Assembly: GCA_964547875.1 (NCBI GenBank)
Contig: CAZJPE010000001.1
Location: forward strand, 176,703-240,702
Length of the DNA stretch: 64,000 nucleotides
Direction of reading: 5' to 3'
Source: Candidatus Woesearchaeota archaeon
GTDB lineage: Archaea; Nanobdellota; Nanobdellia; Pacearchaeales; GW2011-AR1
Both the position numbers and the translations under genes were made by a program. Shown in pieces: positions 1,011 through 45,276 of the stretch (the stretch's first letter is position 1; each line of letters opens with the position of its first letter). The notes under the pieces are model-generated. The model saw nothing but the letters and a program-made list of their open reading frames with translations. It was not told where the DNA came from and did not search any database.

Positions 1011-1694
1011 ATGTCATTCAAAAAATTTGCGAAGGAATTAAATGGAAAAGGCGTTGAAGGCGAGCTTATCAAAACAATTCTTTATTCTTTAATTACTTCA
1101 TTTTTAACTCTTGGAATCCTTTATTTTTTAAAATTTAAAAACATTACAGATTTTATTCCAAAATATGGCTTTTCCCTTTTTTTCTCTGCTCTAAGCTACG
1201 CATTAATCATGCCAACGATAAGGCAGATTAGGGCGTATAAAGAATTGCCATGTATGAGCGGAATGATGGTTGGCATGACAATAGGAATGATATCTGGTTT
1301 CTTGCCTGGTTTTTATGTTGCTTCTACAAATGGAATGTTTATCGGAGGATTTTTCGGAGCTGCTTTAGGGATTGTTATTGGAATTTACAATGGGAAATGC
1401 TGTGGTGTAATGGGAATAATGGAAGGAATAATGGCTGGATTCATGGGAGGATTAATGGGAGCTATGACTGCGTTTATGTTATTTAATGATAATCTGAAAA
1501 TTGCCGCAGTATTAGTCTTTGTAATAGGAGCTGTAATTATGATAGGATTGAATTACATGATTTATAAAGAAACAAAAGAATTAGAAAGAAAATTAGTTGA
1601 AAGCCATTTTTTAACAATATTTTTTACATTTTTATTAATTTCTATTACTACTTGGATTATTGTGTTTGGCCCAAGAAGCGCGATATTTGGATAA
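1011..1694 (+). CDS. Met/Gly-rich polytopic membrane protein (possible metal-related; function unknown)
   Basis: 227-aa ORF with several hydrophobic segments, GxxxG/Met-rich stretches (MSGMMVGMTIGMISGF) and a CC pair. It is immediately followed by a cupredoxin-like gene. Confidence 0.55.
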   Translation: MSFKKFAKELNGKGVEGELIKTILYSLITSFLTLGILYFLKFKNITDFIPKYGFSLFFSALSYALIMPTIRQIRAYKELPCMSGMMVGMTIGMISGFLPGFYVASTNGMFIGGFFGAALGIVIGIYNGKCCGVMGIMEGIMAGFMGGLMGAMTAFMLFNDNLKIAAVLVFVIGAVIMIGLNYMIYKETKELERKLVESHFLTIFFTFLLISITTWIIVFGPRSAIFG

Positions 1695-1724
1695 ATTTAT
1701 ATATTTAATTATAATTATGTAATT

Positions 1725-2117
1725 ATGAGAAATACGACATTAGGAATAATAGCTCTTTTGATAATTGTCTTTGTAGGAGGATATATATTTCTTGGCTCTG
1801 CTAAAACTAACGGGAATTCTATAACAGGGAATGTTGTAAATAATGGAAATAACGGAGAAGTTCAAAAAATAGTTCTAAGCGAAAAGGGACTTAATTATTA
1901 TCCGAATACGATTAATGTAAAAGCAGGAGAGCCTGTAAGCATTTCTTTAGATGAAAAAGTTAAGGGATGTTTAAGGGCGATTACAATTCGTGATTTGGGA
2001 TTGTCTAAATATCTGAAGACGACATTGGATACATTAGATTTTACTCCAACAAAAAAGGGAGCATTTACCATTGCCTGCACAATGGGAATGGGCTATGGGA
2101 AGCTGATTGTTGAATAG
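1725..2117 (+). CDS. Cupredoxin-like domain protein with N-terminal membrane anchor
   Basis: N-terminal hydrophobic helix. C-terminal YYPNTINVKAGEPVSISL...FTIACTMGMGYGKLIVE resembles cupredoxin_1-type small metal-binding domains. Confidence 0.6.
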   Translation: MRNTTLGIIALLIIVFVGGYIFLGSAKTNGNSITGNVVNNGNNGEVQKIVLSEKGLNYYPNTINVKAGEPVSISLDEKVKGCLRAITIRDLGLSKYLKTTLDTLDFTPTKKGAFTIACTMGMGYGKLIVE

Positions 2118-2152
2118 GGCTTAAAATGTTTTTCCTTTCTGAATCAAAAGAA

Positions 2153-3280
2153 TCAACTGGCCTTATGTTCTAACCACATTTTAATTTCCTGAACAATAAC
2201 ATCCAACCTCTTTTTGTCTCTGATATCAGATTCTCGATATACTTTGCATTCAATTCCTTTTTTTGCGTATTCTTCAATAAGTCTTTCAGGAATCCATTTA
2301 TAATCTGGCAATCCTTTCTCTCTACAAAACTCTTCACTGTGCCAATAGCATCCATTAATTTCAATAACTTTAGGTTGCCCCTTAACTTTAAAGTCGGGAA
2401 GTGCAAATCTTCCATCTTCAAGTTTCTTAAACCAGTTGTTCCCTTTCAATCCGGTATAATAGATTTGCCCAGATTGGGCATTCTTCGCATGAGGAACATA
2501 CAATCCATGTTCTTCAAGAGAATTTATAAAAGCATATTCTAAATTATTAGGTGTTCGCTGAGATTTTCTTAATAAATTTTCAATTCGTTGTTCTTTTGGT
2601 AATCCAGATAATGATCCTTTGCGAGCATTCTTAATTCTTTGTTCTGCAGATAATAATGCCAATCCTTTTGGATAAGCTATTATTCCACCCTTTCTTCCAT
2701 TTCCTACTCTTTGTTCCTTTGTAAACTTTGCTAATCCTGCTTTATAACCTAGCTCATTAAATTTCACCCTTTGTTCAGGTGTCAATTGGGACATGGATTT
2801 ATGACCTGTTTGCTGAAACAAGATACGACGCCTGTAATCTATACTTTCCTTGTCAATATTCTCAGAAAGAGTATCTGCTATAGTTTGTGAACAGACCTGA
2901 TAAGACTCTGCTAAGTGGCTATTTGTGGATAATCTTTTTATTCTCCCCTCTTTAAAATCAGTAATTTCTCTTGTAATAAGACCAACTAACTCCTCCGTTT
3001 TTCCACTGAGTTTTTTATGACCCTGATGAGGTTTTCTTTTTTTTGTGCTTTGAGAAAAAAGCTGTTTTGCTCTTTTAAGAAGATCTTCTCTCGATATCAT
3101 ATTATTCCTATTATAGAGCAGATAATTAATATGTGTTTGAGACACATCATACAAAGAAGCTAATTCTTTATTAGGCGTTAATTCTCGGACAGTTCCAGCT
3201 TTATAATTCTCTATTTCTCTCTGAACTCTTTGTATTAATTCTAAACTTTTCTCTAGTGGAATTTCATTTTTTTTCGCCAT
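2153..3280 (-). CDS. Homing-endonuclease-like protein: duplicated N-terminal HTH-like modules, 4 NUMOD3-like repeats, C-terminal Vsr/DUF559-like PD-(D/E)xK nuclease
   Basis: Repeats: LTPEQRVKFNELGYKAG, FTKEQRVGNGRKGG, LSAEQRIKNARKGS, LPKEQRIENLLRKS. C-terminal ALPDFKVKGQPKVIEINGCYWHSEEFC matches the Vsr-type PD...IE..GC(F/Y)WH core. Confidence 0.65.
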   Translation of the reverse strand: MAKKNEIPLEKSLELIQRVQREIENYKAGTVRELTPNKELASLYDVSQTHINYLLYNRNNMISREDLLKRAKQLFSQSTKKRKPHQGHKKLSGKTEELVGLITREITDFKEGRIKRLSTNSHLAESYQVCSQTIADTLSENIDKESIDYRRRILFQQTGHKSMSQLTPEQRVKFNELGYKAGLAKFTKEQRVGNGRKGGIIAYPKGLALLSAEQRIKNARKGSLSGLPKEQRIENLLRKSQRTPNNLEYAFINSLEEHGLYVPHAKNAQSGQIYYTGLKGNNWFKKLEDGRFALPDFKVKGQPKVIEINGCYWHSEEFCREKGLPDYKWIPERLIEEYAKKGIECKVYRESDIRDKKRLDVIVQEIKMWLEHKAS

Positions 3281-3376
3281 TTTATCTTTTATAATAGTAT
3301 CACGATGACTTTATAAATCTTACTATATTAACTACTAATTAGTTAATACAAGAGAGGGGATTTAAAGGATTTGAAG

Positions 3377-3390
3377 AAAGATTTATAAAA
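3377..3390 (+). promoter_or_regulatory. Consensus promoter motif aaagatttataaaa
   Basis: ATG of 3410 ORF about 25 nt downstream. Confidence 0.45.
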
Positions 3391-3409
3391 CTTAAATATA
3401 TCACTCAAT

Positions 3410-3685
3410 ATGGCAAAGAAAAAAACCTCTCTTGAGAATGAAGGATGGTCTCTAGTTGGAATGCATAAAGAAAACCGCTTAGAAGCCAATTTAATTAGAA
3501 CTGAAATAAGAGGGAATACTACAATAAGAACATATCAAGAATATAATATAACAGTAGAAGTTGCTCAATATAGAAAAGGTAAAGAAACTAAGAGATTAGA
3601 AGAAATAAAAGAAAAGATATTCCGAAGAGAGTATAAAGAGGAATCTGGTTTTTTTCAATCTGTTTCAGGAGATTATAATAAATAG
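3410..3685 (+). CDS. Hypothetical protein
   Basis: 91-aa ORF with a consensus promoter at the correct distance. No recognisable domain. Confidence 0.5.
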   Translation: MAKKKTSLENEGWSLVGMHKENRLEANLIRTEIRGNTTIRTYQEYNITVEVAQYRKGKETKRLEEIKEKIFRREYKEESGFFQSVSGDYNK

Positions 3686-3728
3686 TTCTATTTCTTTAAA
3701 TTTTAAACTTGATTATACAAAGATTTAA

Positions 3729-3767
3729 ATATACCTAAAATATATAGATATATACCTAAAATATATA
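3729..3767 (+). promoter_or_regulatory. Tandem direct repeat 2 x atatacctaaaatatata (21-bp period), candidate operator of downstream TA operon
   Basis: Exact 18-nt copies at 3729-3746 and 3750-3767, between a promoter motif (3719-3733) and the ATG at 3778. Confidence 0.55.
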
Positions 3768-3777
3768 AATTAATAGA

Positions 3778-4044
3778 ATGAAGACACAAAATCAGATATC
3801 ACACTCGCCAACACTAAATACAGTATTAATGGTAGAGAGAACCTTAAAAGACGCAAAAGAAGTTATAACTCTAGCCGAGCTAAAAAGAAGACTTCCTAAA
3901 AAAGTGATGCATCAAACACTTCTTCAAATTTTTGATTATCTTCAATTTAGCGGTAAGATAATAATTGGAACAAAAGGTATTCTCTGGATATACGCGGAAA
4001 GAAAAGAACTAAATTTGTTAATTAGTAAAGGTCTTGAAATATGA
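3778..4044 (+). CDS. Putative antitoxin (partner of RelE/ParE-like toxin)
   Basis: 88-aa ORF whose stop overlaps the toxin start (ATGA at 4041-4044). The call rests on position only. Confidence 0.5.
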   Translation: MKTQNQISHSPTLNTVLMVERTLKDAKEVITLAELKRRLPKKVMHQTLLQIFDYLQFSGKIIIGTKGILWIYAERKELNLLISKGLEI

Positions 4045-9669: not shown

Positions 9670-11490
9670 GTGGACGATACGAAGCAGGATAAACACGAGA
9701 ACAAACACGAAAAGAAGACTGATTTAACTGGATATGTGAGCGGGACAGGGGGAGGCGGAAAGCCTGGCGGACTTAATCAGTCTGTGCCTAACGACAATAT
9801 TGAGAAACTTAAGAATAAGCTTGAAGCTTTAAAGAAGGCAATTTTAAAGAAATTTTCGTTTACTAAGGCTTTGGGACTGCTTCCTGCAAAGGCATTTCCA
9901 ATGTTTGAAGAGGAAGAGGTGCCTCAAGAATTCCATGAAGAGATTAAGAAAAACAAGCCCTTGCATTTGATTATGGTTATTCCTGAAGAAGAATACAAGA
10001 ATCTTGGGAAAATTAAACCAGAGGTTGTCAAGCTTGCAAAGGAGTCAGGGGAAAAATTATGGATTCATATAAAGACAGAGATTGATTTGTGGAATTATGG
10101 ATTAGATAGCAAATTTAATTTCATAGATGCTATTTCCGCAAGCATGCCTTTGCATGACAGCGGCTTCTTAGGAGCATTGAGAGTTGCTAATATTCACAAA
10201 TCTTTAGTTCTTGGGAGATTTGACAGATACATCGCGAGCTATTGCATTGGGGGAAGCTTAGTCAGAGGCACTGCTGACCCTACAAGTGATATTGACGTGT
10301 TCATTGTCATTGACGACACTGACGTGAAAAGAATGTCCCGCATTGAATTGCTAGAGAGATTAAGAGGCATAATCTATGAATATATAAAAGAAGCTACTGC
10401 ATTGGCTGGAGTTAAGAACAGATTAGAACCGCAGGTTTATTTATTGACTGATTTTTGGCAGGGCGTTAAAGACGCAAGCCCTGTTTATTTCACTTTTATA
10501 AGAGACGGTGTTCCTTTATACGACAGAGGTACATTCCTGCCATGGAAAAGGTTACTTTTAATGGGAAGGATAAAACCAAGTCCAGAAGCTATTGATCAAT
10601 ACATGAAAGAGGGCGAGAGGACAGAGGAATTTGTCAAAAGGCGTTTAATAGACACTATGATTGACATTTATTACGGGGTTGTTACTCCAACGCAAGCTTT
10701 GATGATGCTTGCAGGACATTCACCGCCTGTTCCGAAAACAATAGTTGCAGAAGTTAAGGATGTATTAGTTAACAAAGAAAAAGTTATGAATTCTGAAGAG
10801 TTAAAGACATTAGAGAAAGCAGTCAAATACTTCAAAGATTATGAGCATGGCAAACTAAAAGAGATATCAGGGAAGGAGATTGACGAATTGCAGAAAGAGG
10901 CTGATGCTTATAGGAAGAAATTAAAGGCTATAAGAGAAAAATTAGAAATGAAAATGCAAGAGCATATGGTTGAAAAGCTGCATTCTGAAATGGAGAAGCT
11001 TCTTAAGAATATATTCGGCAATAAAAGCCAGGATGCCCTGATTGATAATCTGGATAATGAATTAGTAAAAAAGGGTAAATTGCAGCCAAGAATGTTTGAT
11101 ATTGCAAAAGAGATTCTAAAAATTAAAGTCAAAGTCAAAAACAAGAAATTAACGCAGACTGAATTGCAGAGAATTGGTAGGGATGCTAATGATTTGATCA
11201 GTGCCTTAGTTGAATACTTGCAGAGAAAAGAGCTTGTTTCTGCGCAGAAGGGAGTTGTGCAGATTGCTTACAGCGGGAAGAAAGGAGAGCTTGTGCTAAC
11301 AGATTCCGGGGTTTTTTTCGTTTCTGAAGGCAAAGTGCAGAAGGTTGAAAAAAAAGGCTTTGAAAACAGCGACAAGAAAGAATTGGAAGAGGCTTTGAGC
11401 AAGACGAGAGATAAATTGCAATTCAAATTAGACTCTGATATCCTAAATGTCTTGAAGAAAGAGCTTGGGAATTTTGAGATGGTACTATAA
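9670..11490 (+). CDS. Large Pol-beta-fold nucleotidyltransferase fused to helical HEPN-like region and long coiled-coil tail
   Basis: GGSLVRGTADPTSDIDVFIVIDD NTase motif. The downstream segment is paralogous to 18462-19370. GTG start, with TATA-like agctttaaaaata about 25 nt upstream. Confidence 0.7.
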   Translation: MDDTKQDKHENKHEKKTDLTGYVSGTGGGGKPGGLNQSVPNDNIEKLKNKLEALKKAILKKFSFTKALGLLPAKAFPMFEEEEVPQEFHEEIKKNKPLHLIMVIPEEEYKNLGKIKPEVVKLAKESGEKLWIHIKTEIDLWNYGLDSKFNFIDAISASMPLHDSGFLGALRVANIHKSLVLGRFDRYIASYCIGGSLVRGTADPTSDIDVFIVIDDTDVKRMSRIELLERLRGIIYEYIKEATALAGVKNRLEPQVYLLTDFWQGVKDASPVYFTFIRDGVPLYDRGTFLPWKRLLLMGRIKPSPEAIDQYMKEGERTEEFVKRRLIDTMIDIYYGVVTPTQALMMLAGHSPPVPKTIVAEVKDVLVNKEKVMNSEELKTLEKAVKYFKDYEHGKLKEISGKEIDELQKEADAYRKKLKAIREKLEMKMQEHMVEKLHSEMEKLLKNIFGNKSQDALIDNLDNELVKKGKLQPRMFDIAKEILKIKVKVKNKKLTQTELQRIGRDANDLISALVEYLQRKELVSAQKGVVQIAYSGKKGELVLTDSGVFFVSEGKVQKVEKKGFENSDKKELEEALSKTRDKLQFKLDSDILNVLKKELGNFEMVL

Positions 11491-18461: not shown

Positions 18462-19370
18462 TTACTTTTCCCCTGCCTCAAGAATCCTATCAATTATTTT
18501 TGACATTTCCAATAGGAAAGATTCTGCAATGTTCTGCCATTTGTCAATCTCATTGCCTTTAATATCATTTATCTCGCGATGCTGGATTCCTTTATGAAGG
18601 AGATAAATTTCGCGTAGCTCTCCAACTCTGTCTAATTTTAATAAGCCATTATCGGCAAATGTAGTTTTCAGCATCTGTGGAATGTGCTCTGGGCTTGGAG
18701 GCAATTTGCCTGCTGTTATTAATGCTGCTTGCGCGGCATCGACCATTGTCCAATAAACTCCTTCTATTGAACTTAAAATAGCTATCTTACTTCTTGCCAA
18801 ATGCAAAGGAGATCTTTGAAGAGCATTATAAACTGCTTCAGGAGTAGAGCGTATTCTGCCCTGCAATAGAAGGGCTTTTAATGGATTGAAAAATCCTCCG
18901 GAGTCAATTAATGCTTCTCCATAACGCAGGGCATTTATTACAACAGGATCGCCATGGACAAGATCCTGCCACCATGTCGTTAGCTTTATTGTATTGACAT
19001 GCAAATCTTTTGGATATTTTTCTGATGCTATTAGCTTGCCTAATTCTTCCCTATACCATGCTATTAATTCTAAATCCCAATTTATTGACGCATCGTCTAT
19101 AATCAAGATTACGTCAATGTCTGAAGTTGAATGGGCCGTGCTCTGCGCCTGCGAGCCGAAGAGAATAGATGCCTTTACAATCCTGTCAAATTTTTTATGA
19201 ACTTTCTCTGCAAAATCCATTGCTATTTCTTTCTCATTAATCAGAGATTTTTTCTGCAGAGGAAGAGTTTTTATAAGCTTAACTCTTGATTTAGCAGAGG
19301 CGTGCTCATTTTTTTTGCTTTCAACCTTCTTTTTTAATGCCATTTTATATTTATTGAAAGATAATGACAT
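18462..19370 (-). CDS. Pol-beta-fold nucleotidyltransferase fused to HEPN-like helical domain
   Basis: FGSQAQSTAHSTSDIDVILIIDD. The C-terminal GRIRSTPEAVYNAL...AAQAALITAGKLPPSPEHIPQML parallels 9670-11490 (GRIKPSPEAIDQYM...QALMMLAGHSPPVPKTIVAEV). Confidence 0.7.
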   Translation of the reverse strand: MSLSFNKYKMALKKKVESKKNEHASAKSRVKLIKTLPLQKKSLINEKEIAMDFAEKVHKKFDRIVKASILFGSQAQSTAHSTSDIDVILIIDDASINWDLELIAWYREELGKLIASEKYPKDLHVNTIKLTTWWQDLVHGDPVVINALRYGEALIDSGGFFNPLKALLLQGRIRSTPEAVYNALQRSPLHLARSKIAILSSIEGVYWTMVDAAQAALITAGKLPPSPEHIPQMLKTTFADNGLLKLDRVGELREIYLLHKGIQHREINDIKGNEIDKWQNIAESFLLEMSKIIDRILEAGEK

Positions 19371-25584: not shown

Positions 25585-25881
25585 CTATAATTCAACACCT
25601 TGCTTCATTGCATCTCTCATAATTCCAATTTCTTTTTTTTTCTTATTAAGTTCTTCAGGAGTTAAACATATAATATCAATATCGTAAGGAGCGTCCCAAA
25701 GCAAGTATAATTTTGGAGACCTTTTATAGAATTTTATATCCTCAAAATCCCTTGAAACTATAATTAAATCAATATCGCTATTTTCTTTTGCCTTACCAGT
25801 TGCTCTTGAGCCAAATAAAATAAATCTTTCTACATTTATAATTTTTCTTACTTTTTCCATAAAATTTTTAAGCGGATTCAT
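25585..25881 (-). CDS. Minimal nucleotidyltransferase (MNT) antitoxin
   Basis: FILFGSRATGKAKENSDIDLIIVS. The preferred start is the ATG at 25881, which forms an ATGA overlap with the HEPN stop. The track start at 25905 is also possible. Confidence 0.8.
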   Translation of the reverse strand: MNPLKNFMEKVRKIINVERFILFGSRATGKAKENSDIDLIIVSRDFEDIKFYKRSPKLYLLWDAPYDIDIICLTPEELNKKKKEIGIMRDAMKQGVEL

Positions 25882-26255
25882 AATTTCAATTTCTTTCTTG
25901 CCCATTCTAATACCTCTTGAGCTATATTAAAATAATCTGTTGCATCTTTCTCTTCAAATTCTTCAGCAGGAATTTTGTTGGCTATATCTGGATATCTTGT
26001 TTCTTGATATACAGGTTCTAATAAAGCTAATTTATTTAGAACTTCTTCTGGAACATTACTCAATTTTCCCAGTTTAGACACGCTATGCGTTTTAACTAAT
26101 TCTTTTTTTTCTTTTATGTACAATGCTTTCAAAGCTTTTTCTGCTGCTTGTTGAGACATAAAAGCAGATAAATAATAATCTCCAGCATTTAAAGAATTTT
26201 CAGCGCTTCGTAAATCCGCTTCTGCCTGCTTCCACCAATTTTCAACTTCCTTCAT
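25878..26255 (-). CDS. HEPN-domain toxin
   Basis: WWKQAEADLRSAENSLNAGDYYLSAFMSQQAAEKALKALYI...ETRYPD. Confidence 0.8.
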   Translation of the reverse strand: MKEVENWWKQAEADLRSAENSLNAGDYYLSAFMSQQAAEKALKALYIKEKKELVKTHSVSKLGKLSNVPEEVLNKLALLEPVYQETRYPDIANKIPAEEFEEKDATDYFNIAQEVLEWARKKLKL

Positions 26256-38021: not shown

Positions 38022-38744
38022 ATGAAAAAAGAATTCTGGAAAGATTGGAAAAGAAAAACATCTATAGAGAAAAAAGCAATTGAAGCGGTAAAAAGAGCAA
38101 GAGAGTTAATTATAAGAGCAATTCCCAAGAAAAAACTCGTAGCTATTTATATCAAGGGAAGTTTTATAAGAAGAGAGATGAAAAGAGGAAGCGACGTTGA
38201 TATAGTTCCTATAGTAGCTGAAAACAAGTATGAAAAACCTATATTTGAATTGAATAAACCTGAAATTACGCCATGCGTAATCGTTCCTTTATCACTTTGG
38301 GAATTAAAAAATAATAAATTGTTCACTAAAAACAATTCTCCTAGAGCAAGACCAGATAGATTTATTAAATACCTAAGCCATTATAAGCTAATTTATGGAA
38401 AAGCCCTAAATACAACTAATTTTAAAATCAGAACAGATGAAGAAAGCTTTAAGGCTCTTATCAAAGCATTCAAAAAATCTTTTATCCCATTATACGAAAA
38501 AGGAAAGCTTGGATTTTCTGGAATAATAAAAGAAACATTCTGGCTAACTGAATTAGAGCAAAGAATTAAATTAATAATTCCAATCTTTTCGTTTAGAGGA
38601 GTATCTAAATCAATTAGAGACAAAAATCATATAGTTCATGATGCTTGGAAATTGAGATTACATAAAACAAAAGACAAAAGAAAGAGAAAAGCATTTATTA
38701 TTAAGTTAAAGAAACATCTTAAGCGATTGGAAGAATTAAATTAG
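38022..38744 (+). CDS. Pol-beta-fold nucleotidyltransferase domain protein
   Basis: VAIYIKGSFIRREMKRGSDVDIVPIV. Confidence 0.65.
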   Translation: MKKEFWKDWKRKTSIEKKAIEAVKRARELIIRAIPKKKLVAIYIKGSFIRREMKRGSDVDIVPIVAENKYEKPIFELNKPEITPCVIVPLSLWELKNNKLFTKNNSPRARPDRFIKYLSHYKLIYGKALNTTNFKIRTDEESFKALIKAFKKSFIPLYEKGKLGFSGIIKETFWLTELEQRIKLIIPIFSFRGVSKSIRDKNHIVHDAWKLRLHKTKDKRKRKAFIIKLKKHLKRLEELN

Positions 38745-38875: not shown

Positions 38876-40378
38876 ATGATGAAAAGAATCTTTTTACCAA
38901 TTAGTTTAATTATCTTAGTTGGATTTTTAGGTTTAGTAATTGCTTCAGAAATTGAGAGCGGCGTACCAATATACAAGGGATGGAATCTTATTTATGGATT
39001 TACTCCTAACTCATTAGATGGACAGGCATTTGAATTTAGCCATATAAAAGCAATATATTCTTATGTTCCTCAAGAAGGTAGGTATGTTAGACTTTTTCCA
39101 AGACCAGAAAATTCTATAGTGGATAAGTATGGTGATAGTTATTTTGAGAAGCAAGTTAATTGGGTTTACTCAGATGTTTCAGATACCTCATCACGAACAG
39201 AATATTGGCTTGAGGAACCGCTTCCTATAGGCGAGACTACTTTAGTTTCTGGTTGGAATTTTGTTAGAGTTACTCCTGACATGTTTTATGAGAAAGATGG
39301 AACTGAGGTTTTTTCTTGGAATTCTATAAAGGGAAGTTGTATTATACAAAGAGTTTATGCTTGGAATCCAGAAACTCAAGATTGGATGCAAATATCTCCT
39401 TCAGAAGAGTCTTTTGATTTTGATGATTTTCTTATGATGGGGATGGCTGTAAGAGTGTCAAATAATTGCAAATTAGAATTTTTAATTATTAGTCCGCCGT
39501 CTTTACCTATTATTGAGGAAGAGTCCACAGACGAAGATACAGAGGAAGAGTCCACTGATGACAACACAATAGAATCTACTTATTTTCCGAAAACAATTTC
39601 AACTTATTCACTTTATGATTCAGGAGAAGAACCTGAAGAATGTATTGACGATGGCTCTTTATGCGCTGAGGGATTAAGGGGAGAATATAGAGATTCTGCT
39701 ACAAATAGCGTAGTCTTTGTTGGGCTATGGGATATTGATGTGACGGATGCTACAAAGGGCAGTGAAGAAGCGCAACTTAAAGAATATTTTGCTTCTTCAT
39801 TTGACGAAGATAGTGATGGGACTTTAGATTCTATATTGATTGGCTCTAATAAGCTGTATCGTTTAGAAGATCATGAATTATTTTGGTTTACAGGCAAGGA
39901 TTTTCCTCCTTTGATATTTACTCAAGAGGGCAGTCTTCATTTAAGAGAAGAGGGAAGTTACGATTTCACTTATGGAACTGCGACTGGAGATAATGCGGTA
40001 ACTAAGAAGTTTTTATCACTTTATCCTTCTAAAGAAGTGGAAGATGCTACGCAGTTTGTAAGTGCCTGTGTTACTAATGCGCCTTTCAATTGCAAGGATT
40101 ATACTATCGGGACAAACGCAATTAATCTGAATATTGGGAATGGCGGAGGAGAATTTTTTGTAATTGACCAAGTTAAAATAACTATCAATGAAAAGATTTG
40201 CTCAACTTCTTCTGCTTGGACACTTGGCCCTAATACATCACATAGTTTTATACTTTCCTGCAATAATGCTCTTACGCTTGGAGCAAATATAGATGGTGAC
40301 ATTGCAATTATGTATCATAAATCAGGCAGTAATATAAAACTAGTATCTACGGGCGCAATTAAGGGCCAAGTTTATTGA
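38876..40378 (+). CDS. Secreted/surface protein with signal peptide and acidic linker
   Basis: MMKRIFLPISLIILVGFLGLVIA signal-like N-terminus and an EEESTDEDTEEESTDDN linker. Confidence 0.6.
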   Translation: MMKRIFLPISLIILVGFLGLVIASEIESGVPIYKGWNLIYGFTPNSLDGQAFEFSHIKAIYSYVPQEGRYVRLFPRPENSIVDKYGDSYFEKQVNWVYSDVSDTSSRTEYWLEEPLPIGETTLVSGWNFVRVTPDMFYEKDGTEVFSWNSIKGSCIIQRVYAWNPETQDWMQISPSEESFDFDDFLMMGMAVRVSNNCKLEFLIISPPSLPIIEEESTDEDTEEESTDDNTIESTYFPKTISTYSLYDSGEEPEECIDDGSLCAEGLRGEYRDSATNSVVFVGLWDIDVTDATKGSEEAQLKEYFASSFDEDSDGTLDSILIGSNKLYRLEDHELFWFTGKDFPPLIFTQEGSLHLREEGSYDFTYGTATGDNAVTKKFLSLYPSKEVEDATQFVSACVTNAPFNCKDYTIGTNAINLNIGNGGGEFFVIDQVKITINEKICSTSSAWTLGPNTSHSFILSCNNALTLGANIDGDIAIMYHKSGSNIKLVSTGAIKGQVY

Positions 40379-40380
40379 AT

Positions 40381-40575
40381 ATGAAAACAAAAGGAGATGA
40401 TAAAAAAGGGAGTGCTTGGATTTGGATTTTAGTAATTGTTATTTTAATTGTTATTGGAATTGTGATTTATATGGCAGTTTCCGGCAGTTTTGTTCCAAAA
40501 CCGCCTGCTTTGCCTGATGCTGGCGGCGCTGCTTCTGGCAGTTCAATACCGGCGCCACCTGGATTGCCTAAGTAG
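40381..40575 (+). CDS. Small single-pass membrane protein with Pro-rich tail
   Basis: WIWILVIVILIVIGIVIYMAV, then PKPPALPDAGG...PAPPGLPK. The ATG at 40381 follows track TTG 40375. Confidence 0.45.
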   Translation: MKTKGDDKKGSAWIWILVIVILIVIGIVIYMAVSGSFVPKPPALPDAGGAASGSSIPAPPGLPK

Positions 40576-40638
40576 TAAGAATTGTTTTTTATAAGAAAAA
40601 TAGATTCGAGTATTCAAAATATAGCTATGGTTTCTTAA

Positions 40639-40654
40639 AAAACCATATGGTTTT
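40639..40654. promoter_or_regulatory. Perfect 16-bp palindrome AAAACCATATGGTTTT (plus extra ATGGTTT half-site at 40627-40633) abutting promoter of the MNT/HEPN/PRTase operon
   Basis: Read directly. It ends 2 nt before the promoter motif at 40656-40670. Confidence 0.6.
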
Positions 40655-40655
40655 A

Positions 40656-40670
40656 GAAAGATTTATATAG
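40656..40670 (+). promoter_or_regulatory. Consensus promoter motif gaaagatttatatag
   Basis: ATG at 40691 lies about 24 nt downstream. Confidence 0.5.
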
Positions 40671-40690
40671 TTTCTATTGATACCATTAAT

Positions 40691-41257
40691 ATGAAAATAA
40701 AAGAAGTTAATTTGGACAGCAATGAACCTTATTTGAAAGTAATGAGATGGTTTTTCTCTTTTCCAGAGAGAAAAATAGGGCTAAATGACTTAATAAAAGA
40801 AGTCCATATATCTAAAACTACAGCGAATAAAGTTATTAACAGGCTGGAGAAGGAAGGCTTCTTAATAAAGGAAGTTATCGGCAAGGCATGGAGAATTAGT
40901 TGTAACCAAAAACATCAATATAATATAACCAAGAAGATATGTTATAATCTTGAATTGATTTATGAGTCTGGGATAATAAAAGAGATAGATAAAAAATATA
41001 AGCCCAAATCTATAATATTATTTGGTAGTTATAGAAAAGGAGATGATAATGAAAAAAGTGATATTGATATTGCAGTTGAGATTGTTTCTAATATTGGATT
41101 AAGAATTGAAGAATTTGGAATATTAGAGAAATTTGGATTTAGGAAAAATGTGAAGATTAATGTTCATATGTTTTCAAGAAAAAAGATAAACAATAATCTT
41201 TTTTCAAATATCGCTAATGGAATCATTCTCGATGGGTTTTTGGAGGTTAAACAATGA
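40691..41257 (+). CDS. Winged-helix-like domain fused to minimal nucleotidyltransferase (MNT)
   Basis: N-terminal GLNDLIKEVHISKTTANKVINRLEKEGFLIK. NTase motif IILFGSYRKGDDNEKSDIDIAVE. Confidence 0.8.
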   Translation: MKIKEVNLDSNEPYLKVMRWFFSFPERKIGLNDLIKEVHISKTTANKVINRLEKEGFLIKEVIGKAWRISCNQKHQYNITKKICYNLELIYESGIIKEIDKKYKPKSIILFGSYRKGDDNEKSDIDIAVEIVSNIGLRIEEFGILEKFGFRKNVKINVHMFSRKKINNNLFSNIANGIILDGFLEVKQ

Positions 41258-41646
41258 GGCAGAGAATTCCTGATAAAGAAAAGGCAAAAAGCTTGATTGC
41301 ATCTGCAAAAAAAGATTATGAATATACTTTAACTTTAGAAGTAAATGATAATTCTGCAAATACTATAATTAGAAATATTTATGAATCTTTTAGGATGTTG
41401 GGAGAATCTCTGCTAACTATAAAAGGAATTGAATTTACGGAGCATATTGAATGTATCAAGGAATTAATTAATTTAGATATAAAAACAAAGAGGCCAGCCC
41501 AGATTTTGGATTATTTGAGAAAAACAAGGCATAGAATCAACTATTATGGATATATTGCTAAAAAAGAAGAAGCAGAAGAAATTATTTCAATAGCTAAAGA
41601 CTTCTTTTTGGAATTTTATAAGGAGGTTGAAAAGAGGGCGAGATGA
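41254..41646 (+). CDS. HEPN-like helical protein
   Basis: 130 aa, all-helical, with an LRKTRHRINYYGY region resembling the HEPN R-x-H/Y motif zone. ATGA overlap with the MNT stop, and GGAGG upstream. Confidence 0.65.
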   Translation: MRQRIPDKEKAKSLIASAKKDYEYTLTLEVNDNSANTIIRNIYESFRMLGESLLTIKGIEFTEHIECIKELINLDIKTKRPAQILDYLRKTRHRINYYGYIAKKEEAEEIISIAKDFFLEFYKEVEKRAR

Positions 41647-42143
41647 AAATTCAAGCTGAATTAAAGAAGAGAATGAAAGAGGATAGTGGATATTTAATTA
41701 CGGCATATCCCAAATTATATAGAAAAGTCATAAGTGCTATGATAAAACCATTTAAAAACAAGGATATTGATAAAATAATGTCTCCGGAAATGAAAGGTAT
41801 GCTCTTTGGACCTGTTGTTGCATTTAAAATGAATTTGCCCTTTGTGAGTATTGTAAAAGGTGGAAGAATTCCAAAGAAATTTATATTGAGTAGAACTTTC
41901 AAAGATTATACCAATAATACAAAAACGCTTAATATCGCTAAAATTACTGTAAATAGAGGAGATAAGATACTTCTAGTGGATGATGTTTTTGAGAGCGGAA
42001 AATCTGGAAAAGCAATAATAAAAATGATAGAGAAACTAGGAGGAAAAGTCGTTGGTATCTCACTAGTCTATAATAAATTAAATGAAAAGAATGAGAATTT
42101 TTTTAAGAAATATAATTTTCATTATTGTGTAAAAATGAAATAG
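41643..42143 (+). CDS. Type I phosphoribosyltransferase, adenine-PRTase-like
   Basis: IDKIMSPEMKGMLFGPVVAFKMNLPFVSIVKGGRIP...GDKILLVDDVFESGKSGKAIIKMIEKLGGKV (PRPP-binding loop). ATGA overlap with the HEPN stop. Confidence 0.8.
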   Translation: MKIQAELKKRMKEDSGYLITAYPKLYRKVISAMIKPFKNKDIDKIMSPEMKGMLFGPVVAFKMNLPFVSIVKGGRIPKKFILSRTFKDYTNNTKTLNIAKITVNRGDKILLVDDVFESGKSGKAIIKMIEKLGGKVVGISLVYNKLNEKNENFFKKYNFHYCVKMK

Positions 42144-42157
42144 TCTGAGGTAATAAG

Positions 42158-42259
42158 ATGAAAAACTTAGAAATTGCCAAGATTCTTTATGAAATAGCAG
42201 ACATGCTTGAGATAAAAGGAGTGGAATTCAAAGATATAAAAGAGAGACGATTACGATAG
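42158..42259 (+). pseudogene. 5' fragment of a polX gene (33 codons; first 25 homologous to 43564-43638)
   Basis: MKNLEIAKILYEIADMLEIKGVEFK versus PolX MKNLEIAKILYEIADMLEIQGVAFK. 64/75 nt identical, and 7 of 9 changed codons are synonymous. Confidence 0.8.
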
Positions 42260-42300
42260 GTTTATAAATTACTAGTAATTATTAATAATAACTTTAAGTC

Positions 42301-42333
42301 CCCAGTATGACCTCTTCATGAGGGAATGCTGGG
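42301..42333 (+). other. Imperfect 14-bp-arm hairpin CCCAGTATGACCTC-ttcat-GAGGGAATGCTGGG followed by T-rich tract
   Basis: 12 of 14 positions pair. The following sequence is tttaatattttattttt. Possibly a terminator or RNA element at the cassette boundary. Confidence 0.4.
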
Positions 42334-42386
42334 TTTAATATTTTATTTTTACAAATATTTATAATCTTATTTTCTAATTGAATTAT

Positions 42387-43064
42387 ATGAAAAAGCCAAA
42401 AGCCATTATTTTCTTTGATGCAAATAACTGGTATCATAATGTAAAGAACATGGTAAAGCCAAGCGATATTGATATAAGAAAGATTGCAAACTTAATATGT
42501 TCTGCTAATGAATACGAATTAGAAGGAGTAAGATGGTATGTATCAACTCCAAGCATAAAAGATGGGGAAGCAATGTATTATCGTCATATGTCTTTCTTAT
42601 CACATTTAGAGAAGCAAGGAATTAAAGTTGTTACAAGAAAACTTCAGAGATTATCTAATAAAGAGGTACAGGAAAAGAAAAAAGAACTGATTGATTCATT
42701 GGGGTTTTGTAAAGTTTGTAAACCATTAGCAGAAGAGAACTTTCTTGAATTAGCTGATATGAAAAGAAAGGAAAAAGGAATAGACGTCTGGATTGCAATT
42801 GATATGATTAGAAAATTAATAATAGAAAATAAGTGTGATGTCTGTATTTTGATATCCGGAGATGCTGATTTTGTTCCAGCCTTAGAATTAATTAAGGAAA
42901 GCGGAAAAGAGATATTAAGCTCTTTTGTCCCAATTGGTTATTCTTATGAATTAAGAAGCAAATTCAAATATTTCTTTCTAGGTAAGAACAATATAATAAG
43001 TTGTTTAAAGGGTTATAAGCAGACCAAGAAGGAGAAAAATAATAGTGAAAAGAGGCTGAAATGA
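42387..43064 (+). CDS. NYN/LabA-like domain protein (PIN-like nuclease fold)
   Basis: KAIIFFDANNWYHNV...GIDVWIAIDMI...ILISGDADFVPALELIKESGKEI. The ATG at 42387 follows track TTG 42378. Confidence 0.8.
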   Translation: MKKPKAIIFFDANNWYHNVKNMVKPSDIDIRKIANLICSANEYELEGVRWYVSTPSIKDGEAMYYRHMSFLSHLEKQGIKVVTRKLQRLSNKEVQEKKKELIDSLGFCKVCKPLAEENFLELADMKRKEKGIDVWIAIDMIRKLIIENKCDVCILISGDADFVPALELIKESGKEILSSFVPIGYSYELRSKFKYFFLGKNNIISCLKGYKQTKKEKNNSEKRLK

Positions 43065-43567
43065 AATTCAAAACAAAAAACTTTATTTTAAGACCGCCCA
43101 AAAAGGGTGATGAAGGTAGCTTATGGGAGAATTATAATGAACCCCAAGTTATTAGAAGTTTTGTAACAAATCCTACAGAGAAGCAATTTAAATCTGATTT
43201 TAAAAAAGGACTAAAAAATCAAGAAAAAGATGCAGAAAGATTTGTTATCGAAATTGATGGAAAAGCTGTTGGGAAAATAAATATAAAACTCTTTGATCCT
43301 TATAATAAGACAAAGGCGAAAATAGGATATTGGATAGGGAAGAAGTATCGTGGAAAGGGAATTGTTACTGAAGTAATTAAATTAGCTGTTCCTTATTGGA
43401 TGAAAAAATATAAATTAAAAAGAGTTGAAGCAAGAGCGAGAACCTATAACAAAGCTTCAGCGAGAGTGCTTGAAAAAGCTGGTTTTGAGTTGGAAGGAAT
43501 TTTAAGAAAGAATGTTCTTAAAGATGGAAAATTGTATGACGATTTTCTCTATGCGAGGCTGAAATGA
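43061..43567 (+). CDS. GNAT-family N-acetyltransferase (RimJ/RimL-like)
   Basis: GYWIGKKYRGKGIVTEVIKLAVPYWMKKYKLKRVEARARTYNKASARVLEKAGFELEG. Confidence 0.85.
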   Translation: MKFKTKNFILRPPKKGDEGSLWENYNEPQVIRSFVTNPTEKQFKSDFKKGLKNQEKDAERFVIEIDGKAVGKINIKLFDPYNKTKAKIGYWIGKKYRGKGIVTEVIKLAVPYWMKKYKLKRVEARARTYNKASARVLEKAGFELEGILRKNVLKDGKLYDDFLYARLK

Positions 43568-45276
43568 AAAACCTAGAAATTGCGAAAATCCTTTATGAAA
43601 TAGCAGACATGCTTGAAATACAGGGAGTTGCGTTCAAGCCGAGGGCTTATCAACGAGCAGCTCGGGCTATTGAAAGTCTGTCAGAGGACATAGAAAAGAT
43701 TTACAAGAGAGGCGAATTGACGAGCATTCCTGGAGTTGGCGAGCATATTGCAGAGAAGATTTCTGAATTTCTTGAGACTGGAAAGCTGAAATATTATGAT
43801 GATTTGAAGAAGAAAATGCCGATAAAAGTTGAGGAGCTGACAGGCGTTTCAGGGATAGGGCCAAAGAGGATTATGACATTGTACAAAAAACTTGGGGTGA
43901 AAAATTTGAAAGATTTGCAGAAAGCTGCTGAAAAGCATAAAATCCAGAAGATAGAGGGATTTGGAGAAAAGGTTGAAGAGGACATACTTAAGGGCATTGA
44001 ATTCGCCAAGAAGAAAACAGGAAGATTTTTGCTGGGCTATATCATGCCTCTTGCAGAAGAAATTAAAGATAATATCGCCAAGCTGAAGAGCGTTAAAAAA
44101 GTGGAGATAGCTGGCTCTTACAGGAGAAGAAAAGAGACTGTTGGAGATATTGATATTTTAGTTACTTCTAATAAGCCAAAAGATGTAATGGATTATATTA
44201 TTAAAATGCAGGATGTTGATGCGGTTTTAGCGCATGGAATTACAAAATCAATGATAAAATTAAAAAATGGCTTGGAAGTTGATGTAAGAGTTTTAGACGA
44301 GAAAGAATATGGAAGCGCATTGCAGTATTTTACAGGGAACAAAGAGCATAATATTGCTTTAAGGAACATTGCACTGAAAAAAGGATATAGTTTAAGCGAG
44401 TATGGCTTGTTCAAACTAAAGGGGAAAAAATGGATTGCTGGAAGAGCGGAAAAAGACATTTATCAAAAACTTGGATTACAATACATAGAGCCTGAGATGA
44501 GAGAGAATAATGGCGAGATTGAATTGGCTTTGAAGAAGAAATTGCCCGGCCTTATTAATTATGGGGATGTTAAAGGAGATTTGCAGATGCATAGCGAATG
44601 GAGTGACGGAAGCAATACAATTGAAGAAATGGCTTCTGAAGCCAAGAAATTAGGAATGAAATTTATTGCGATTACAGATCATGTTGGACAATTGGCAATT
44701 GCGCATCCTTTAAATAAAAAAAGGCTTGAGAAACAGAGCAAAATTATTGACAAATTAAATGACAAGCTGAATATCAGAATTTTTAAGGGAGCTGAAGTTG
44801 ATATATTAAAAGACGGAAAATTAGCTCTTGATAGGAAAATGCAGGATGAGCTGGATATTGTGCTTGCAGCTGTTCATTCTGGCTTTAAGATGAGCGAGGG
44901 AGAGATGACTGCAAGAATATGCAAAGCGCTAGAGAATGATAGAGTTCATATTTTTGCGCATCCAACTGGAAGGTTATTACAGCAGAGAGAGCATTACGCT
45001 GTGAATTTTGAGAAACTCTTTGAAACTGCAAAGCAGAACGATGTTTTTTTGGAGATTAATTGCTATCCTGAAAGGATGGACTTAAATGGGGGGCTTATAA
45101 AATCTGCAAAAGAAAGCGGTTGCAAGTTCAGCATTGGCACAGATTCTCATAATAAAGAGCATTTAAAATATTTGAAATTAGGAGTTTCTTTGGCAAGGCG
45201 AGGCTGGCTTGAGGCAAGGGATGTTTTAAACACATTCAATGCAAAGATGATTGAGAGGGTTTTGAGAAGGAAGTAG
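43564..45276 (+). CDS. polX: Family X DNA polymerase with C-terminal PHP domain
   Basis: HhH motifs, GSYRRRKETVGDIDILV, and PHP DLQMHSEWSDG...HP...GTDSH. Confidence 0.92.
   Translation: MKNLEIAKILYEIADMLEIQGVAFKPRAYQRAARAIESLSEDIEKIYKRGELTSIPGVGEHIAEKISEFLETGKLKYYDDLKKKMPIKVEELTGVSGIGPKRIMTLYKKLGVKNLKDLQKAAEKHKIQKIEGFGEKVEEDILKGIEFAKKKTGRFLLGYIMPLAEEIKDNIAKLKSVKKVEIAGSYRRRKETVGDIDILVTSNKPKDVMDYIIKMQDVDAVLAHGITKSMIKLKNGLEVDVRVLDEKEYGSALQYFTGNKEHNIALRNIALKKGYSLSEYGLFKLKGKKWIAGRAEKDIYQKLGLQYIEPEMRENNGEIELALKKKLPGLINYGDVKGDLQMHSEWSDGSNTIEEMASEAKKLGMKFIAITDHVGQLAIAHPLNKKRLEKQSKIIDKLNDKLNIRIFKGAEVDILKDGKLALDRKMQDELDIVLAAVHSGFKMSEGEMTARICKALENDRVHIFAHPTGRLLQQREHYAVNFEKLFETAKQNDVFLEINCYPERMDLNGGLIKSAKESGCKFSIGTDSHNKEHLKYLKLGVSLARRGWLEARDVLNTFNAKMIERVLRRK

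Follow-up and report, generated by a model that had tools for sequence, protein, structure and literature searches.

Two units or one system? A nucleotidyltransferase–HEPN gene pair overlapping an Apt-like phosphoribosyltransferase gene in a DPANN archaeon

Introduction

When three consecutive genes are chained by overlapping start and stop codons, do they form one functional system, or are they simply neighbours in a compact genome? The question is raised by a locus in the 64-kb stretch of DNA from a Candidatus Woesearchaeota archaeon that was analysed here as a whole (the window). Its three genes encode a wHTH domain fused to a minimal nucleotidyltransferase (MNT), a HEPN-fold protein and an Apt-like type I phosphoribosyltransferase (PRTase), referred to below as ORF1, ORF2 and ORF3.

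A first-pass annotation, made from the sequence, had proposed that the PRTase is a dedicated, translationally coupled third component of the pair. Every feature on which it drew is present in the DNA at the position it gave (Table 1), but our reading of them differs. With a probability of roughly 0.8, the locus consists of two independent units arranged head to tail – a self-contained MNT/HEPN cassette and, behind it, an unrelated resident PRTase gene. Read in this way, the locus is ordinary, with no new three-gene system.

Table 1. Features of the locus, its flanking regions and a second HEPN/MNT pair, in window coordinates.
Feature	Position	Strand	Description	Predicted role or remark
Second, canonical HEPN/MNT pair	25585–26255	-	Within the window	
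Upstream operator half-site ATGGTTTC	40627–40634	+	Shared with L009 and L011	Start of their homology to the window
Perfect 16-bp palindrome AAAACCATATGGTTTT	40639–40654	+	Core ACCAnnTGGT	Main predicted wHTH operator
BRE-like AGAAAGA and TATA box TTTATATA	40655–40669 (TATA 40662–40669)	+	TATA begins 29 nt upstream of the ORF1 ATG	
Promoter-proximal half-site GATACCAT	40679–40686	+	Between TATA box and start codon	Overlaps the expected transcription start
ORF1	40691–41257	+	wHTH + MNT, 188 aa	Predicted autorepressor and antitoxin
ORF2	41254–41646	+	HEPN-fold protein, 130 aa	Predicted toxin/MNT partner
ORF3	41643–42143	+	Apt-like type I PRTase, 166 aa	Probably a resident salvage-type gene outside the cassette
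polX 5' fragment	42158–42259	+	33 codons and a stop	Second copy of the beginning of polX, whose intact gene starts at 43564
Hairpin and T-rich tract	42301–42349 (hairpin 42301–42333)	+	Tandem G-A internal loop	Probable 3' end of the ORF1–ORF2–ORF3 transcript

Gene overlaps at the locus

The chaining of the three genes stands as first described: ATGA overlaps join ORF1 to ORF2 (41254–41257) and ORF2 to ORF3 (41643–41646), and a GGAGG at 41242–41246 precedes the ORF2 start codon by 7 nt. Further ATGA overlaps are found in the window, among others at 4397, 43061 and 43564, and a GAGG Shine–Dalgarno-like motif is combined with such an overlap also at the NYN/GNAT and GNAT/PolX junctions. As these arrangements are routine in this genome, an overlap is by itself no proof of a dedicated module. 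At the junction between the HEPN and PRTase genes, neither a terminator nor a promoter-like gap is seen; a TATA-like TTTATAAG does lie 28 nt upstream of the PRTase ATG, where it may serve this gene as a leaderless promoter of its own.

The MNT/HEPN pair

ORF1, which contains IILFGSYRKGDDNEKSDIDIAVE, is matched by the Pfam families NTP_transf_2 (8.4e-10), Polbeta (2e-8) and HTH_24 (1.1e-4), and by the PADLOC model PDC-M05A (6.1e-10, 37 bits) over residues 16–167 – nearly the full length, including the N-terminal wHTH region. These matches bear out the proposed fusion of a wHTH domain with an MNT. The same PADLOC model matches 29 of 29 ORF1 family members (best 5.7e-13), and across 29 relatives G112, S123, D124 and D126 are invariant, with F111 nearly so. 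Homologues number more than 1300, and those with names are all from DPANN archaea. Against the NCBIfam MntA equivalog NF047752, ORF1 scores 35.1 bits, below the curated cut-off of 60.

For ORF2, the assignment to the HEPN fold – also made in the first-pass annotation, and upheld here – comes mainly from structure prediction. The AF2 model is of high confidence (pLDDT 93.3, pTM 0.88), and its top Foldseek matches in the PDB, among them 2hsb, 1ylm, 8xeh (a HEPN–MNT complex), 1wol and 7ae8, are mostly HEPN proteins, with probabilities up to 1.0 and TM scores of 0.5–0.67. As the ORF2 family profile found 0 matches at E<=1 among PDB sequences, we draw the HEPN identity from the model and its Foldseek matches. 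The sole Pfam HEPN match of ORF2 is PF05168, which scores 21.9 bits where the gathering cut-off is 22; in the family, 10 of 33 members are matched by this model. No Pfam match to PF01934 (DUF86/HepT) was found. The PADLOC M05B match is weak (1.8e-4, 19.5 bits), and two M05B models are matched by 10 and 5 of the 33 relatives. Compared by hhalign with the HEPN protein of the window's canonical pair (25881–26255), the ORF2 family gave no significant similarity, and by sequence the two would be only distantly related.

Conservation in ORF2 centres on H64, R89, R92, H93, N96, Y97, Y98, G99 and Y100, of which H64, R89, R92, Y97 and Y100 are invariant and H93 and Y98 near-invariant. The motif reads R92-H-N-I-N-Y97-Y98, i.e. 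R92-x4-Y97. The canonical Rx4-6H is missing, which puts the putative RNase activity in doubt.

Two described systems offer themselves for comparison. PDC-M05, a candidate defence system in PADLOC, shares with ORF1–ORF2 its two-gene architecture of an NTase (M05A) and a HEPN protein (M05B); it is enriched in archaea, and its putative antiviral role is not yet validated (PMC12988326). Several PDC candidates are enriched in DPANN genomes (PMC12988326). Since both M05 scores are modest, the ORF1–ORF2 pair probably represents a diverged DPANN branch. The type VII toxin–antitoxin (TA) systems HepT/MntA (Shewanella SO_3165/3166; Aphanizomenon HEPN/MNT) likewise place the MNT upstream of the HEPN gene with overlapping codons; the GS...DxD residues of their MNT are invariant in the ORF1 family too, the fold of ORF2 matches 7ae8, 7bxo, 5yep and 8xeh, and the ORF2 family has conserved tyrosines beside a conserved arginine. 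Unlike type VII MntA, however, ORF1 carries an N-terminal wHTH fusion, and unlike type VII HepT, ORF2 is of the PF05168 rather than the DUF86/HepT (PF01934) type, with R-x4-Y in place of R-x4-H-x-Y. Both hallmarks of the general class of MNT–HEPN dyads (Anantharaman 2013) – an MNT with hG[GS]...DxD and an adjacent HEPN fold encoded downstream of it – are found here. From these sequence and fold comparisons, the pair appears to be a diverged member of the archaeal-enriched PDC-M05/MNT–HEPN class, and hence of something already known.

Instead of a TA system, the pair might be a domesticated two-subunit NTase or regulator under wHTH control, in which the HEPN protein serves as a substrate-binding subunit, as in kanamycin NTase-type enzymes. 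The missing Rx4-6H would fit this, as would the match of ORF2 to the PF05168 'HEPN-T' type, whose catalytic His is often replaced (PMC3710099), and the fact that searches of viral contigs, phage records and plasmids turned up no relative of the cassette. We nevertheless regard it as unlikely: the gene order, sizes, overlap and patchy distribution over many contexts are those of MNT–HEPN TA dyads (PMC3710099), the invariant R89, R92, H64 and Y97 and the near-invariant H93 are still available for catalysis, and a genome-scale screen is reported to have found toxicity also in HEPN proteins without the motif (PMC3710099).

A conserved operator-like element and promoter

The palindrome and extra half-site beside the promoter, already pointed out in the first-pass annotation, proved to be a conserved, operator-like element in relatives. 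Within the window, AAAACCATATGGTTTT occurs once, and the sole other match requires 3 mismatches; its copy is identical in L009 and off by one base in L011, the loci of the two nearest pairs. Of 73 related loci, 42 have a strict ACCnnnnGGT immediately before the TATA box and most others a near-match, and an xTGGTT half-site recurs in the family consensus at the position of ATGGTTTC. To these can be added a feature beyond those described earlier, the half-site GATACCAT, where the family consensus reads GTTACCAT; 54 of 73 loci have an ACC-type half-site downstream. The predicted target DNA of ORF1 lies within 40620–40690 and comprises ACCATATGGT and the half-sites on either side of the TATA box.

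An AAA-rich BRE followed by a TATA box is found in 73 of 77 related loci, and in most of them the TATA box starts 28–32 nt upstream of the predicted ATG; a spacing of -29 is also seen at 11 other plus-strand gene starts in the window, where many genes that open a transcription unit have it. From the spacing at ORF1, the mRNA is predicted to be leaderless. Although the encoded proteins are only 50–60% identical, the layout of palindrome and TATA box is kept at about 70 independent loci, a recurrence beyond chance, and it fits autoregulation of a leaderless operon, as far as sequence can tell. Rfam searches over 40300–42500 found nothing. A scan for sigma-70 promoters and intrinsic terminators gave fewer sites than shuffled sequences and is, the host being archaeal, uninformative.

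Where the cassette ends

By amino-acid identity, the nearest pairs are those of L009 (83% for ORF1 and 89% for ORF2) and L011 (79% and 82%). DNA alignments with both show homology from the ATGGTTTC half-site to the ATGA that contains the PRTase start codon, and no further. Beyond this point, L009 has a gene for an unknown 199-aa protein, which was considered as a diverged PRTase and is not one, and L011 has PGK. The boundary is thus drawn exactly between the pair and the PRTase, and the claim that the latter is a dedicated, coupled third component fails here on the side of the pair. The wider census, comprising 181 relatives from species-representative genomes, points the same way: the MNT gene lies upstream of the HEPN gene in 80 loci – wherever the contig extends upstream of HEPN – and a PRTase occurs within 4 kb in 0 of 82 related pair loci. 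In most of the 80 loci no gene follows the pair tightly; where one does, it encodes PGK, an E1 dehydrogenase, GH12, HIT (twice), a class-V aminotransferase or an M48 peptidase.

One regularity counts against the two-unit reading. In all three closest-subfamily cassettes the terminal ATGA is shared with a downstream gene, a different one each time, and the more distant cassettes of L021 and L028 likewise end in an ATGA shared with the gene that follows. The cassette might therefore be imagined as a mobile 'operon head' that lands on start codons and places resident genes under its wHTH-controlled promoter, so that expression of the PRTase would depend on the state of the TA pair although the proteins were not biochemical partners. 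The uninterrupted HEPN–PRTase junction, with a hairpin and T-tract only after the PRTase, would agree with such regulatory capture. The scarcity of tightly coupled downstream genes across the census, the generic nature of ATGA overlaps in this genome and the possible promoter of the PRTase itself make it quite unlikely, as does the failure to see a recombinase, target duplication or terminal repeats. A possible family trait, a TATA box that faces outward at -28 relative to the terminal ATGA, was considered and rejected: only the window, L009 (a member of its subfamily) and L050 have one, as do 2 of 70 uncoupled loci, and so the trait is not general.

Taken further, this idea would make the closest subfamily a recombinase-less mobile unit with its own promoter that settles exactly on resident start codons – of the PRTase here, of PGK in L011 and of the 199-aa protein gene in L009. 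We think this very unlikely; if true, it would mean that housekeeping genes are wired to a TA-controlled, wHTH-repressed promoter.

An Apt-like phosphoribosyltransferase of its own kind

The two-unit reading has to hold from the side of the PRTase as well. ORF3, which contains ILLVDDVFESGKSG, matches Pfam Pribosyltran (1.5e-10); its best 11 matches among solved structures, and most of the remaining ones, are adenine PRTases (e.g. 7xi2 at 1.7e-18), and its best NCBIfam matches are apt models, in keeping with the original description of an Apt-like type I enzyme. These apt matches, at 79–87 bits, are all below the curated cut-offs (87.3 against 224 bits for NF002633, 79.3 against 125 for NF002636). 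Of the type I PRPP-loop and PPi-loop residues, D114, G119 and K72 are invariant and D113 nearly so; Y89 is near-invariant as well. Compared with Apt (TIGR01090/PRK02304), ORF3 conserves the acidic PRPP loop, a Lys/Arg in the PPi loop and a Tyr in the flexible loop, but has SGYLIT for FxDI(T/S)P, PEMKG for EARGF and ESGxSG for ATGGT. Throughout the ORF3 clade the Apt hood FxDI[TS]P is replaced by DSGYLITAYP, whereas the canonical Apt sequences in the alignment (P0044–P0046) keep FKDITPL.

In a tree with ordinary Apt genes from a metagenome scan as outgroup (25–41% identity), ORF3 falls in a separate, small and divergent clade of about 40 known genes that is specific to Pacearchaeota and allied DPANN lineages. 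When metagenomes were scanned with ORF3 by itself, no relative was confirmed; the scan with the family alignment drew only on the generic PRPP-loop pattern and yielded ordinary Apt genes, which served solely as this outgroup. From its sequence, ORF3 most likely salvages a purine base, although scores below every curated apt cut-off and a different base-binding hood put the putative substrate in doubt.

Might such an enzyme nonetheless serve the pair, as an accessory effector or modulator that supplies or removes nucleotides, or as a defence effector like ShosT (of Shosta) or PsyrT (of PsyrTA)? Besides the overlaps and the single promoter common to the three genes, weak partial PADLOC matches of ORF3 to ShosT (2.3e-6, residues 90–158) and PsyrT (1.1e-4, residues 58–137), with which it shares the PRTase fold and PRPP loop, could be cited for this. 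These matches span little beyond the C-terminal 70–80 residues or so that hold the PRPP loop, however; ORF3 matches Apt far better (1e-24), and no partner genes of ShosT or PsyrT are present.

Ten other genomic contexts of ORF3 orthologues were found, most of them without an MNT/HEPN pair, so that the proposed link also fails when followed from the PRTase; genes of nucleotide metabolism (PNP, NUDIX, thymidylate kinase, a YfbR-like HD protein, adenylate kinase) are often nearby. In 7 of the 10 contexts MNT is absent altogether. One of the remaining contexts, L176, is the only one of the ten with a same-family pair upstream: a distant pair (34% and 33% identity), GrpB and an ORF3 orthologue (64%) form one overlapping operon, which counts against the two-unit reading. 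In L005 and L007, unrelated MNT/HepT pairs lie 0.45–1.1 kb downstream of the PRTase, a weak, non-significant trend. MNT genes are dense in this genome – five NTP_transf_2 genes in the window, that of the canonical HEPN/MNT pair among them, and about 16 additional MNT-motif ORFs across 456 kb of flanks – and an MNT-type gene near 3 of 10 orthologues outside the window, against 1–2 expected (p ~0.07–0.4), is therefore not significant.

The three-gene idea was to be given up if the PRTase grouped with housekeeping Apt, was the only apt gene and had no conserved adjacency to such pairs; of these three linked outcomes, two have largely been observed. Adjacency is essentially not conserved, and a search for a second apt or PRTase gene within the 64-kb window found none; the enzyme is Apt-like, though in a divergent clade of its own. 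With the census already largely refuting it, a dedicated three-component system is highly improbable. As a weaker addition to the very unlikely mobile-unit idea, the L176 operon hints that the DPANN Apt-like PRTase might have a genuine, if loose, tie in function to MNT/HEPN pairs.

Downstream of the PRTase

The first-pass annotation also had the module end at a scar left by a polX gene fragment. The fragment is real: 42158–42231 is 86% identical in DNA, over 74 nt, to the true start of polX (43564–43637), and 23 of its first 25 residues are identical to those of the intact protein. The scar lies downstream of the PRTase, however, and not at the cassette boundary. Beyond it, the hairpin folds with a dG of -21.5 kcal/mol (z -4.45; 0 of 200 shuffled sequences fold as well), and neither it nor its T-tract has an Rfam match.

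Could the cassette, the PRTase and the polX fragment (~40.6–42.26 kb) have been acquired horizontally in one piece, with the fragment as a recombination scar? The position of the polX duplicate directly after the PRTase is suggestive, and so is a block of lower GC content at ~40.7–43.3 kb (26–30%, against 34–39% in the flanks). The block also covers NYN and GNAT, however, and other low-GC genes occur close by. Moreover, in L172 a PRTase orthologue and NYN (65% and 52% identity) lie in synteny without the cassette; after the PRTase comes a hairpin of the same stem sequence but another apical loop, and the polX fragment is absent from the spacer. The shared PRTase–hairpin–NYN order suggests that PRTase and NYN are ancestral neighbours and the polX fragment a later insertion, and joint acquisition is accordingly an unlikely history for this locus.

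A tentative mode of action

The two-unit reading suggests how the locus might work. The cassette, of ~1.02 kb (roughly 40627–41646), carries its own BRE/TATA promoter, bracketed by ACCAnnTGGT-type sites. The wHTH domain of ORF1 is predicted to bind the palindrome together with the half-sites that flank the TATA box, and so to repress its own transcription. Its MNT domain, through GS...DxD, would nucleotidylate the HEPN protein, probably on Y97, Y98 or Y100 next to R92, and thereby keep it inactive; were MNT activity lost, the HEPN protein would be freed to cut or bind RNA. The PRTase would be a resident gene, adjacent to the cassette by chance and with no dedicated role in the function of the pair; it would be co-transcribed with the cassette, its start codon overlapping the HEPN stop codon as at many junctions in this compact genome.

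Implications

The outcome is mainly a correction: in a compact DPANN genome, an ATGA-coupled trio can resemble a new three-component system while being, in all probability, a common two-gene MNT/HEPN cassette of the PDC-M05 type that precedes a salvage gene specific to the lineage. Two points of wider biological interest follow from the analysis. The strongly conserved operator and promoter layout of the DPANN cassette family defines a specific DNA site at which binding by the wHTH domain can be tested. The clade of Apt-like PRTases with an altered hood, for its part, bears on nucleotide salvage in the reduced Pacearchaeota and their relatives.

Gene layout and junctions

The three open reading frames described in the first-pass annotation – ORF1 (wHTH–MNT), ORF2 (HEPN) and ORF3 (an Apt-like phosphoribosyltransferase, PRTase) – are present and chained by ATGA overlaps, with a GGAGG ending 7 nt upstream of the ORF2 ATG. 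Such coupling is generic for this genome, since the NYN/GNAT and GNAT/PolX junctions are likewise ATGA overlaps with GAGG approximately 5 nt upstream, and GAGGNNGARATGAAA recurs in four exact copies in the window, all within 38.0–43.6 kb (shuffles: mean 0.47 matches with one mismatch allowed).

The GNAT acetyltransferase gene (43061–43567) has a perfect 15-bp direct repeat, GAGGCTGAAATGAAA, at both its ATGA junctions (43052–43066 and 43555–43569), with related copies at 41634 (HEPN/PRTase junction) and 38013; three different proteins upstream of junctions of this type end R-[AL]-[RK]-stop. The repeats reflect either strong selection for an SD–spacer–ATGA coupling signal or a recombination hotspot.

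Features of the locus and other nucleotidyltransferase genes in the window
Feature	Position	Strand	Details
Half-site ATGGTTTC	40627–40634		
Perfect palindrome AAAACCATATGGTTTT	40639–40654		
TATA box TTTATATA	40662–40669		
ORF1	40691–41257	+	188 aa
ORF2	41254–41646	+	130 aa
TATA-like TTTATAAG	41615–41622		inside HEPN coding sequence, 28 nt before PRTase ATG
ORF3	41643–42143	+	166 aa
polX fragment	42158–42259		33 codons; duplicate of intact polX 5' end (43564–43665)
Hairpin and T-tract	42301–42349		3' of PRTase; dG -21.5, z -4.45
NTP_transf_2-domain protein	9670–11490	+	606 aa
NTP_transf_2-domain protein	18462–19370	-	302 aa
Second, canonical HEPN/MNT pair	25585–26255	-	overlapping genes, HEPN upstream
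Canonical MNT	25585–25905	-	NTP_transf_2 2.9e-13
Canonical HEPN	25878–26255	-	PF05168 4.8e-30
NTP_transf_2-domain protein	38022–38744	+	240 aa

The MNT–HEPN pair

Profile matches bear out the reading of ORF1 as a winged helix joined to a Pol-beta nucleotidyltransferase (NTase): Pfam NTP_transf_2 (8.4e-10), Polbeta (2e-8) and HTH_24 (1.1e-4, just above cut-off), together with PDC-M05A, the nucleotidyltransferase model of a PADLOC candidate defence system, which aligns to residues 16–167 – thus covering both wHTH and NTase – and is matched by 29 of 29 aligned ORF1 relatives. Across the family alignment G112, S123, D124 and D126 are invariant and F111 nearly so.

For ORF2, the score against Pfam HEPN (PF05168) lies just under the gathering score (21.9 bits; gathering score 22), the match to PDC-M05B, the HEPN model of the same system, is weak, and the family profile finds no match among PDB sequences. 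The proposed HEPN-like character is supported by a confident AlphaFold model (pLDDT 93.3, pTM 0.88), for which HEPN proteins make up the majority of top Foldseek matches in the PDB: AF0298 (2hsb), YutE (1ylm), ST0689 (1wol) and sacsin HEPN, with the HEPN–MNT complex 8xeh and the HepT structures 7ae8, 7bxo and 5yep also matched. Helix 3 ends in a conserved block (R89..R92-H93-x-x-N96-Y97-Y98-G99-Y100; H64 is also invariant) that differs from the canonical Rx4-6H motif. In the HEPN-T / PF05168 type the His is often replaced and another His is conserved elsewhere (PMC3710099); the ORF2 block fits this type.

The pair belongs to the MNT–HEPN toxin–antitoxin class, in which MNT lies 5' of HEPN (PMC3710099) and for which HEPN tyrosine nucleotidylation is described as proposed or demonstrated (PMC3710099; Songailiene 2020, as cited in PMC12988326). 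More specifically it is probably a diverged member of PDC-M05, an NTase plus HEPN candidate system, 59% archaeal and functionally unvalidated, and DPANN are enriched in several PDC candidates (PMC12988326). We rejected the pair as an MntA/HepT equivalog because ORF1 scores 35 bits against an MntA cut-off of 60 bits, and ORF2, unlike HepT, is of PF05168 rather than PF01934 type and without RxxxxHxY.

Operator and promoter

The palindrome occurs once in the window, the sole other match taking three mismatches. Its proposed role as an operator beside the promoter is strengthened by the recurrence of this layout at ~70 loci whose proteins are just 50–60% identical to those of the window; anchored on the TATA box, these give the consensus TGGTT.t.AAAAAa.TCAtaTGgtTttTTA.A.aACCAtaTGGTAACCAAAAAGTTTATATAGTt.t.aatGTTACCAta..tATG, comprising a distal site, an ACCAnnTGGT palindrome abutting BRE/TATA, and a GTTACCAT half-site between TATA box and ATG. 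With sites flanking the TATA box on either side, the layout suits a wHTH that would repress transcription through them. The TATA box begins ~29 nt before the ATG, the spacing seen at many transcription-unit first genes in the window, so the cassette mRNA is predicted to be leaderless; internal genes have GGAGG- or GAGG-type sites instead.

The TATA-like TTTATAAG within ORF2 could be an internal leaderless promoter for the PRTase: its spacing is close to the 29 nt of leaderless promoters in this genome, although the pattern has a frequency of 1.6 per kb per strand. L009, the nearest pair relative, shares it but most relatives do not, and it is no family trait.

The PRTase as a neighbour of the cassette

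A dedicated third component, as the first-pass annotation had proposed for the PRTase, was rejected on the cassette ends, the census of pair loci and the PRTase contexts. The cassette ends are defined by alignment with the nearest relatives, L009 (83% and 89% identical for the two proteins) and L011 (79% and 82%): homology begins at the ATGGTTTC half-site, continues through palindrome and TATA box across both genes, and ends at the ATGA, which is followed in L009 by a protein of 199 aa with no relation to the PRTase and in L011 by phosphoglycerate kinase (PGK).

Scanning species-representative genomes for relatives of the HEPN gene gave 181. Eighty loci were retrieved, and MNT lies 5' of HEPN in every one whose contig extends upstream of HEPN. 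The suggested survey for a PRTase directly behind the pair returned none within 4 kb at 82 pair loci (tblastn and PRTase HMM). At most pair loci nothing downstream is tightly coupled to the pair; the genes that do follow tightly are PGK, E1 dehydrogenase, GH12, HIT (twice), class-V aminotransferase, M48 peptidase and several unknowns. HIT-domain (nucleotide hydrolase/transferase) genes lie close behind the pair in L014 (2670–3371) and L082 (4391–4942), and one occurs in L178 (6065–6511) within a PRTase–GNAT–aminotransferase–HIT string, numbers too small to judge.

Among ten other ORF3 orthologue contexts (57–66% identity), seven lack MNT genes altogether. L172 keeps the PRTase–hairpin–NYN synteny (NYN 52% identical), preceded by an ordinary spacer of 65 nt, and thus represents an 'empty site'. 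Nucleotide-metabolism genes are frequent neighbours of the orthologues: PNP, NUDIX, thymidylate kinase or synthase, a YfbR-like HD protein and adenylate kinase.

Downstream, the polX fragment noted earlier is indeed present and is a rearrangement scar: it matches the intact polX start at 86% over 74 nt (23 of the first 25 residues identical), is separated from that gene by NYN and GNAT, and is absent from the syntenic L172 spacer. The stable hairpin, conserved between PRTase and NYN in L172 (4583–4617), has a stem (CCCAGUAUGACC...GGGAAUGCUGGG) whose symmetric internal loop is of the tandem G-A type (kink-turn/loop-E-like), a variable apical loop and then the T-tract; an Rfam search gave no family match. 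It probably ends the transcript, and could act either as a terminator or, in the NYN 5' region, as a protein-binding (L7Ae-type) element. GC is lower (26–30%) across 40700–43300, from the cassette through PRTase and NYN into GNAT, than in the flanking 500-aa ORF and polX (34–39%).

Only one other locus, L176, combines the pair family and the PRTase clade in one directon: a distant pair (34% identical to ORF1 and 33% to ORF2) heads an operon (1082–3983) of wHTH–MNT, HEPN, GrpB, Apt-like PRTase and APH, with overlapping codons throughout and a PNP_UDP_1 nucleoside phosphorylase gene 62 nt upstream. GrpB is itself a nucleotidyltransferase-fold family. In L005 and L007, unrelated MNT/HepT pairs lie 0.45–1.1 kb downstream of the PRTase. 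With five NTP_transf_2 genes, one of them in the second, canonical pair, the 64-kb window is unusually dense in such genes, and this sets the background for any argument from a nearby MNT. The canonical pair is unrelated in sequence to the family of ORF1 and ORF2, with no significant hhalign match. DPANN flanks (456 kb) add ~16 MNT-motif ORFs. Against one MNT gene per 16–35 kb, the three of ten PRTase loci with MNT within ~1.6 kb are not significant (p ~0.07–0.4). A loose PRTase–MNT/HEPN link may exist, and nothing requires it.

A lineage-specific Apt-like family

ORF3, a type I PRTase, finds its best NCBIfam matches among the apt models, with scores that reach 87 bits and in every case stay below cut-off, and the best 11 and most of the other 15 solved-structure matches are adenine PRTases (7xi2, 1.7e-18). 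The PRPP loop, PPi-loop Lys and flexible-loop Tyr are conserved, whereas the base-binding hood reads SGYLIT where Apt has FKDITP, and ESGxSG stands in place of ATGGT. It reaches none of the curated apt cut-offs and lacks the hood motif, and is here called Apt-like, not Apt. A word-based search found only 46 relatives, and six of 1.84 billion representatives reach E<=1e-30. In a neighbour-joining tree the ORF3 clade is monophyletic, with two sister proteins (P0041, labelled Woesearchaeota, and P0043); the clade is small and separate.

Overall, the features, domain assignments and operator idea hold, and the three-gene module does not: the pair adds a new, diverged member to a two-gene class already known, and adjoins a lineage-specific putative salvage gene.
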